A DNA stretch of 64,000 nt from Escherichia coli (lineage in GTDB: Bacteria; Pseudomonadota; Gammaproteobacteria; Enterobacterales; Enterobacteriaceae), in the NCBI RefSeq assembly GCF_003334785.1, contig NZ_QOWV01000005.1. One strand, given 5' to 3'. The notes beneath the pieces were generated by a model. The model was not told the DNA's origin. It saw only the letters and a program-made list of their open reading frames with translations, and made no database searches. A program made the translations under genes and the position numbers. Within the stretch, counting starts at the first letter, position 1. Every line of letters begins with the position of its first letter. Shown in pieces: positions 56,276 to 56,632 of this stretch.

Positions 56276-56297
56276 GATATTCCTTTCTGCTTATCTC

Positions 56298-56324
56298 AAG
56301 GCCCGCTCTGCGGGTCTTTTTTTC
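56298..56324 (+). terminator. fbaA rho-independent terminator
   Basis: ggcccgc-tctg-cgggtc followed by a T-run. Confidence 0.5.
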
Positions 56325-56329
56325 GCCAA

Positions 56330-56460
56330 AAGCAAAATTGCCTGATGCGCTACGCTTATCAGGCCTACACGTATCCTGCAATATATTGAATTTGCAGGTT
56401 TTTGTAGGCCGGATAAGGCGTTCACGCCGCATCCGGCATGACAAAGCGCACATTGATATC
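56330..56460. repeat. REP/BIME units
   Basis: gcctgatgcgctacgcttatcaggcc and ggataaggcgttcacgccgcatccggca motifs. Confidence 0.6.
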
Positions 56461-56632
56461 TGTCTGAGCCCCGCTCTGCGGGGATTTTTTCGCCAAAAGC
56501 AAGGTGATTCAGATGAGAAATCTGTGATCTATTTGGCAAAATTATGCTTTATTGTTTACCCTTGTCAGACTGCCCGTCATAAGGCGGCGGAGTGTATTTC
56601 TCCATTTTGAGTCAGTTGAAAAGGAATATTGA

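Follow-up and report, generated by a model that had tools for sequence, protein, structure and literature searches.

The spacer between fbaA and mscS of Escherichia coli carries the fbaA terminator twice, as a first copy (T1) and a second copy (T2) that stand on either side of a single BIME-1 element, and this T1, BIME-1, T2 order is the normal arrangement of strain K-12. We consider it likely that one complex event, preceding the separation of E. coli and E. albertii, placed the BIME-1 and re-copied the terminator, that T1 and T2 both act as terminators, and that the repeats have since driven recurrent loss and gain of the element. All of the parts are of known kinds, namely a BIME-1/RIP element, intrinsic terminators and repeat-mediated indels.

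The repeated terminator module and the element between its copies

The window analysed here is a stretch of DNA of 64,000 nucleotides, in which the genes around the repeat follow the pgk-fbaA-mscS-argO order of E. coli. The fbaA-mscS spacer is 357 bp long, and when it was compared with the same region of K-12 MG1655 no difference from the window was found anywhere along it. The initial annotation had described a terminator-like motif that recurs in this spacer with REP palindromes between the copies. It can be seen from Table 1 that the repeat is real, although the coordinates given for it earlier were off by 1-2 nt, and that the palindromes between the copies are a Z1-type unit and an inverted Y-type unit.

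Table 1. Features of the fbaA-mscS region, in window coordinates, with the evidence on which each was placed
Feature	Position	Strand	Evidence
fbaA CDS (class II fructose-bisphosphate aldolase; the gene being terminated)	55196..56275	+	ORF list; RefSeq annotation of identical or near-identical loci
Module copy 1 (T1), AGGCCCGCTCTGCGGGTCTTTTTTTCGCCAAAAGCAA, 37 nt	56299..56335	+	Direct repeat; terminator scan; fold; Term-seq; orthologous to the single terminator of outgroups
Full BIME-1, 140 bp	56328..56467		Palindromic units; end motifs of sister copies; yajD-tsx filled and empty alleles
BIME-1 left end motif, AAAAGCAAAATT	56328-56339		Common to the fepA and yajD-tsx copies
Z1 unit, GCCTGATGCGCTACGCTTATCAGGCCTAC	56340-56368		Palindrome search
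L linker, 35 nt, with IHF-consensus-like site	56369..56403	-	Pattern scan; Rfam ES036/CssrF match
Inverted Y unit, reverse complement GCCGGATGCGGCGTGAACGCCTTATCCGGCCTAC	56404-56437		Palindrome search
BIME-1 right end motif, about 30 nt	56438-56467		Common to the fepA and yajD-tsx copies
Module copy 2 (T2), AGCCCCGCTCTGCGGGGATTTTTTCGCCAAAAGCAA	56467..56502	+	Direct repeat; terminator scan; fold; Term-seq
167-bp unit of one BIME-1 and one module, missing from the short allele and found twice in AH02-type genomes	56336..56502		Allele alignment; population counts; AH02 structure
mscS upstream region, with the Enterobacteriaceae-conserved box TCTGTGATCTATTTGGCAAAAT...TTGTTTACCCTT, just 3′ of T2	56503..56632	+	Outgroup comparison
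mscS CDS, downstream gene	56633..57493	+	ORF list; RefSeq annotation

Both modules were called terminator-like by a terminator scan, and each is made up of a GC hairpin (56298-56318 in T1, 56469-56483 in T2), a T-run (56317-56323 and 56485-56490, respectively) and the tail CGCCAAAAGCAA. T1 has nine pairs followed by U7 and folds with -14.3 kcal/mol, and T2 has six G-C pairs followed by AU6 and folds with -11.8 kcal/mol. Three substitutions, all within or beside the stem, separate the two copies, and one of the T-runs is longer by a single T. Both copies have the same loop (TCT) and the same stem core, the similarity continues for 12 nt past the T-run, and the last 18 nt of both modules are the same. 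When the two halves of the spacer were aligned locally, the best score was 28, whereas 500 dinucleotide-preserving shuffles gave a mean of 10.9 (sd 1.7) and a maximum of 22; the module repeat is far above chance, and with this score and a tail matching at 18/18 positions the copies are related beyond the short hairpin.

The Term-seq tables for MG1655 (Adams et al., 2021, PMC7815308, supplementary file 1) list a 3′ end designated 'primary, fbaA' at K-12 3070119/3070118, with 160,555 reads in LB at OD 0.4, 54,607 reads in LB at OD 2.0 and 120,854 reads in M63. This position corresponds to 56321/56322 of the window and falls within the U-tract of T1. An 'orphan' 3′ end with 44,902 reads is listed at K-12 3069950 in LB at OD 2.0, which is only one of the three conditions (PMC7815308), and corresponds to window position 56490, the last U of the T2 tract. 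Since Term-seq ends fall in both U-tracts, T1 and T2 both coincide with RNA 3′ ends in vivo. A further 'orphan' end of the same tables, at K-12 3071314, lies inside an ERIC/IRU-type repeat (GTGAATCCCCAGGAGCTTACATAAGTAAGTGACTGGGGTGAGCG) in the pgk-fbaA spacer (55042-55168); the Rfam family V_AS5 gives a sub-threshold match to this repeat (38.9 bits against a gathering score of 96).

T1 probably ends most fbaA transcripts. We infer that T2 catches read-through from the highly expressed fbaA gene, in that it would end the transcripts that run past T1 and would shield the conserved box upstream of mscS, and the BIME-1 would then form part of a 3′ UTR that is 168 nt longer in transcripts reaching T2. 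Instead of read-through, the 3′ end at T2 could come from RNA processing or from a start inside the BIME. The box itself, TCTGTGATCTnTTTGGCAAAA...TTGTTTACCCTT at 56520-56570, is conserved from Escherichia to Citrobacter, Kluyvera, Enterobacter and Pluralibacter and is probably the mscS promoter or a regulatory site.

A BIME-1 is defined as one Y and one Z1 unit around a long L linker, which is conserved and often carries an IHF site (PMC3333891). At fbaA a Z1-type unit and a Y-type unit are inverted relative to each other, with a long conserved L linker between them, and in K-12-type alleles the element is a single, extragenic copy lying between the fbaA stop and the mscS start; the exception is a group of 5 AH02-type genomes with two copies. 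The minus strand of the linker holds a candidate IHF site, ATTCAATATATTG (56379-56391), with one mismatch to WATCAANNNNTTR, and the linker core CCTGCAATATATTGAATT is common to the gyrB and fepA copies. BIME-1 elements are further characterised by the binding of IHF, and of gyrase or Pol I to their palindromic units, and the consensus-like IHF site is what the fbaA sequence shows of this. Over a 99-bp core, which as RNA has a very stable fold (-49.9 kcal/mol, z = -7.2), the fbaA BIME-1 is 93-95% identical to the BIME-1s of gyrB-yidB and fepA-entD. The Rfam family ES036/CssrF (RF02751) has a full-length match on the minus strand at 56361-56403, with 47.3 bits against a gathering score of 37.6; as the L linker recurs at other BIME-1 loci, this match marks the repeat and not a locus-specific sRNA gene. 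A weak match to the Rfam family naRNA4, below its gathering score, falls on a REP unit. No other BIME-1 was found in the 64-kb window, and two lone REP units, one Z1-like and one Y/Z2-like, are present at 24666-24690 and 43649-43684, neither of them in a BIME-1.

Alignment of the fbaA copy with those of fepA-entD and yajD-tsx revealed that the element extends past its palindromes on both sides, with a conserved left end of 12 nt abutting the Z1 unit, AAA[A/C]G[C/T]AAAA[T/C]T, and a conserved right end of about 30 nt abutting the Y unit, ATGAACAAAGCGCAC.TTGT.AACAATCTGA. It is because sister BIME-1s carry these end motifs outside their palindromes that the fbaA element is given the limits in Table 1, and because the 12 nt left of Z1 and the ~30 nt right of Y belong to the element, the target duplication proper is about 28-37 nt. 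The first 8 nt of the left end (AAAAGCAA) are at the same time the last 8 nt of the repeated module. A duplication reaching back as far as the fbaA stop codon (GATAT--CTGTCTG against GATATTCCTTTCTG) was considered and set aside, since the right-end motif of sister BIME-1s gives the better alignment to these positions. In the fbaA leader, at 56276-56283, there is an AT/TC dimorphism (GATAT or GTCAT) among E. coli strains, and the same dimorphism distinguishes E. coli from E. albertii near the end of the right-end motif (56452-56460); its occurrence at both places is either chance or gene conversion between paralogous stretches.

Age and origin of the duplication

Among the matches listed from Citrobacter, Kluyvera, Enterobacter, Pluralibacter, Phytobacter and others, fbaA is followed by one terminator and there is no REP. 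The order in these outgroups is a terminator (GGCCCGC-loop-GCGGGCC with a T-run), then ATTGCCnTTTCAA, then the mscS upstream box. We conclude that the single terminator is ancestral, because the outgroups carry one terminator and no REP. In E. albertii, a full terminator, a BIME-1 and a terminator follow one another with the same junctions as in E. coli. Identity between E. albertii and K-12 is 94.3% for the BIME, 86.8% for copy 2, 96.3% for the fbaA CDS and 88.4% for the mscS CDS; as the values for the element and copy 2 accord with those of the flanking genes, the pattern fits vertical descent and not recent transfer. Since E. albertii has the same structure, the duplication and the BIME-1 insertion are old and predate the split between the two species. 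The coupling of terminator duplication to BIME insertion that had been suggested at the outset is thus borne out, with one terminator and no REP in outgroups and terminator, BIME-1, terminator in Escherichia. No demonstrably untouched pre-insertion site was seen in the Escherichia genomes sampled, which were of E. coli and E. albertii.

The sister BIME-1 loci have left a variety of footprints. At yajD-tsx the element is a clean 139-bp insertion into an A6 run beside the tsx terminator, with at most the ambiguity of the A-run, and the site is empty in about 1,600 of 5,426 genomes; because the filled and empty alleles differ by a clean 139 bp, the BIME-1 end motifs are confirmed. At gyrB-yidB the BIME-1 lies between the gyrB stop codon and the gyrB terminator, and in about 800 genomes, ST131 among them, unrelated sequence of 36 bp stands where the others have 132 bp, which is a replacement and involves no repeat. 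The fepA-entD BIME-1 has no flanking repeat, and there is no empty allele with which to compare it. The element at yaaX-yaaA (Z2-L-Y), which is without end motifs, was the only match in one 50-kb stretch of K-12. As the sister BIME-1s show other footprints, the long target duplication at fbaA is a one-off by-product.

Metagenomes were also searched for further BIME-1 loci with the L-linker pattern CCTGCAATATNTTGAATTNNCAG. The fbaA locus or an orthologue of the E. albertii type accounted for 38 of the 40 stretches recovered, which makes the pattern locus-specific, and the other two were a noisy assembly of the fbaA locus and a chance coding match. In viral contigs, a shared 18-mer matched only the fepA locus and, by chance, coding sequence.

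From the junctions we infer a single-event origin, along with a possible enzymology. One event before the E. coli/E. albertii split would have put the 140-bp BIME-1 directly 3′ of the fbaA intrinsic terminator and would, in the same step, have re-copied a terminator module of roughly 28-37 nt on the far side of the element, giving T1, BIME-1, T2. If this took place by template switching, synthesis would have left the target at AAAAGCAA, run through a donor BIME-1 and returned to the target 28-37 nt upstream, at ATCTCAAG; an equally possible route would be that TnpA(REP), the REP-associated transposase, transferred strands at C|T sites. Copy-in of one donor BIME-1 would give the observed structure exactly, and in one step. 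The fbaA target matches the left end of the element over 8 nt (AAAAGCAA), and the right end of the element (..ATCTGTCTGAG) is similar, at about 5/6 nt, to the target sequence immediately 5′ of the hairpin (..TTATCTCAAG); both homologies are short. At the left junction some of the microhomology may have come from later gene conversion, since AAAAGAAAAATT is found there in E. albertii and in two haplotypes of E. coli.

It is conceivable that BIME-1s in general are installed in such a manner, by copy-in with variable points of exit and re-entry (through template switching or synthesis-dependent repair, possibly at C|T nicks made by TnpA(REP)) and not by precise cut-and-paste. We put this wider reading forward tentatively, on account of the three differing footprints, the junction homologies at both ends of the fbaA element and the additional unit of strain AH02, which re-enters at the same point.

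Two separate events could have built the same structure, either by slippage that made a tandem terminator and was followed by insertion of the BIME-1 between the copies, or by a clean insertion followed by a later duplication or rearrangement that added the right module. In favour of this, a BIME-1 can insert cleanly and without a long duplication, as at yajD-tsx, the gain of a unit is demonstrable at the fbaA locus itself in AH02, and the copies seem to undergo gene conversion, since their 18-nt tail is identical in K-12 and not in E. albertii. However, the element abuts both copies precisely, so that a second event would have had to strike the tandem junction within a few nt, and no intermediate, whether two terminators without a BIME or a BIME with one module, was present among the E. 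coli or E. albertii sampled. A two-step origin is therefore less parsimonious, and we regard it as unlikely.

We also think it improbable that the repeat on either side of the element is an ordinary target-site duplication, of the sort that staggered cutting by a REP-associated tyrosine transposase would leave and that would be typical of BIME-1 insertion. Such an origin would suit repeats that directly flank a mobile-type element, and TnpA(REP) does cut single-stranded DNA at C|T in vitro, up to several hundred nt around a BIME (PMC3333891); both copies of the module begin 3 nt after C|T (ATC|TCAAGG and GTC|TGAG), although C|T is a frequent dinucleotide. Against it, enzymes of the IS200/IS605 type make no sizeable target duplications (PMC2817692), and the BIME-1 loci share no short duplication of fixed length of the kind that a transposase leaves: the duplication measures 28-37 nt at fbaA, whereas yajD-tsx received 139 bp cleanly, gyrB-yidB exchanged 36 bp of target and fepA-entD is without any flanking repeat.

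Alleles of the fbaA locus across E. coli

The long, duplicated allele is present in 3,726 of 5,426 complete E. coli genomes (about 69%). The remaining genomes (about 31%) are 167 bp shorter and have a single module, apart from a few disrupted alleles; the register of the 167-bp unit as drawn in Table 1 is arbitrary within the identical 18-nt tail. When ten short alleles were sampled, all ten had the hairpin and T7 of copy 1 joined in register to the sequence 3′ of copy 2, and because this join is in register within the identical tail it is the product expected of an exchange. In the single-event account, the direct repeats would make the locus unstable, with deletion easiest within the 18-nt tail. 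A deletion of this kind would remove the BIME and one module and restore a single terminator of the T1 type, and has probably done so several times in E. coli, and the reciprocal gain of one unit also occurs. By contrast, 5,346 of the 5,426 genomes retain the fepA-entD BIME-1, which has no flanking repeat and is thus lost in about 1.5%.

Short alleles are found on at least four flanking haplotypes. This comparison covered 18 sequences over 1,554 nt, with 87 variable sites, and used a local neighbour-joining tree rooted on E. albertii, in a species that recombines. The short allele of SC467 differs at 5 of the 1,554 nt from the long allele of ST2350 and at 20 or more from any other short allele. 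On both sides of the indel it has the K-12 state, at a SNP 25 nt upstream and at another 7 nt downstream, the second of these being a site with three alleles that may be homoplasious. When allele state was placed on this local tree by Fitch parsimony, the root came out as long and no fewer than 4 changes were required. Recurrent repeat-mediated loss with occasional gain fits as the simplest reading, the exact number of events being uncertain given recombination in E. coli.

Gain of a unit is represented by 5 of the 5,426 genomes (AH02, AH04, CX08, CX12 and CT01), which have three modules and two BIME-1s; in AH02 these occupy positions 828-1352 of the stretch examined (L084). The extra unit of AH02 is chimeric, with a left half that is fbaA-specific and a right half that is 91% identical to the yajD-tsx element, so that simple unequal exchange does not account for at least this gain. 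In the middle module the 5′ arm reads GGCTTGC, which is found in neither of the parental copies. Variation is also seen in the copy-1 tail (56328-56335), which is AAAAGAAAAATT in ETEC6335 and capsmut3, AGAAGAAAAATT in E. albertii and AAAAGCAAAATT in K-12-type alleles, where it is identical to the tail of copy 2; these variants suggest concerted evolution between the two modules. Further downstream, in strain EC21GDE043, whose allele is of the short type, the conserved box upstream of mscS is interrupted by an IS3-family insertion (TATTTG|...|ATTTGGCA).

The short allele is most likely a secondary deletion and not an untouched ancestral site. The opposite polarity would make the short allele the original empty state and derive the long one from a BIME insertion inside E. 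coli. It would explain why the short allele looks exactly like an unoccupied site and why this allele dominates a basal-looking haplotype cluster that includes PMV-1. ST131 and ATCC 25922, which like PMV-1 are known B2 strains, are also without the fbaA BIME-1, and the sister locus yajD-tsx has a simple filled/empty polymorphism at a similar frequency. This polarity is nevertheless largely refuted by the E. albertii allele, which has the same complex structure with identical junctions at species-level divergence, two independent origins of one and the same 167-bp footprint being very unlikely. In addition, SNPs right beside the indel are common to short and long alleles, and one short allele nests among long haplotypes. 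We therefore give an ancestral short allele very little credence. The notion that T1 and T2 are unrelated terminators, alike by chance or convergence in the GC hairpin and T-run that are the generic architecture of intrinsic terminators, can be dismissed, as the match runs on beyond the T-run through the whole of the tail with the same loop and stem core, its alignment score lies above all 500 shuffles, and in the short allele the two copies are fused exactly in register.

Relation to known systems and meaning for E. coli

With its Z1 unit, 35-nt L linker bearing an IHF-like site and inverted Y unit, and as an extragenic element of ~140 bp 3′ of a gene, the fbaA copy is like other BIME-1 (RIP/RIB) elements, which typically lie at the 3′ ends of transcription units. 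Unlike the three sister BIME-1s examined, it is bracketed by a 36-37-nt duplication of a host terminator, and no description of a BIME-1 bracketed by a duplicated functional host terminator was found in the literature accessible to our search. Presence/absence polymorphism of BIME-1 among E. coli strains is documented (PMC1187871, citing Bachellier 1997).

The fbaA element, being two inverted REPs around a spacer, is also consistent with a REPIN-like unit of the REPIN/RAYT system, in which REP doublets are presumed to be moved by the REP-associated tyrosine transposase TnpA(REP). E. coli K-12 carries tnpA(REP), and TnpA(REP) cleaves and rejoins BIME DNA in vitro (PMC3333891; PMC3116915). However, chemistry of the IS200/IS605 type predicts no long target duplication, the end motifs at fbaA lie outside the REPs, and the BIME-1 footprints, which differ between loci, fit imprecise copy-in better than precise cut-and-paste.

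As terminators, T1 and T2 resemble the tandem back-up terminators of highly expressed operons, since they stand in series, 168 nt apart, and both lie at mapped 3′ ends. They differ from these in that T2 is a paralogue of T1 and a by-product of a repeat insertion, and about 31% of E. coli do without it. The instability of the locus is likewise familiar. RecA-independent deletion between short direct repeats is documented for E. coli K-12 (PMC5426353), and the fbaA locus loses exactly one 167-bp period in register, with the rare gain of one period, so that it is no different in kind from other cases of slippage or recombination between short direct repeats; the extra unit of AH02 is, by comparison, chimeric.

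Little changes for the biology of E. coli, as this is the standard K-12 spacer with a known repeat and ordinary terminators. The locus provides a worked example of how insertion of a REP element can double a regulatory signal of the host and provide a second terminator that works as a back-up, and it supplies an origin for the 'orphan' Term-seq 3′ end that falls at T2. The Rfam 'sRNA' family ES036/CssrF is shown to match the L linker of BIME-1. Flanking repeats govern the dynamics of the element, the fbaA BIME-1 being lost in about 31% of genomes as against about 1.5% for its repeat-less sister. When filled and empty alleles are compared over thousands of genomes, the true limits of BIME-1s and the footprints they leave can be recovered, and the fbaA footprint, taken with the contrasting footprints of its sisters, is a modest clue to how BIMEs are installed. 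If the copy-in reading is true, these junctions would document directly, at the level of sequence, the insertion step in the spread of REP and BIME sequences, which has so far escaped observation.
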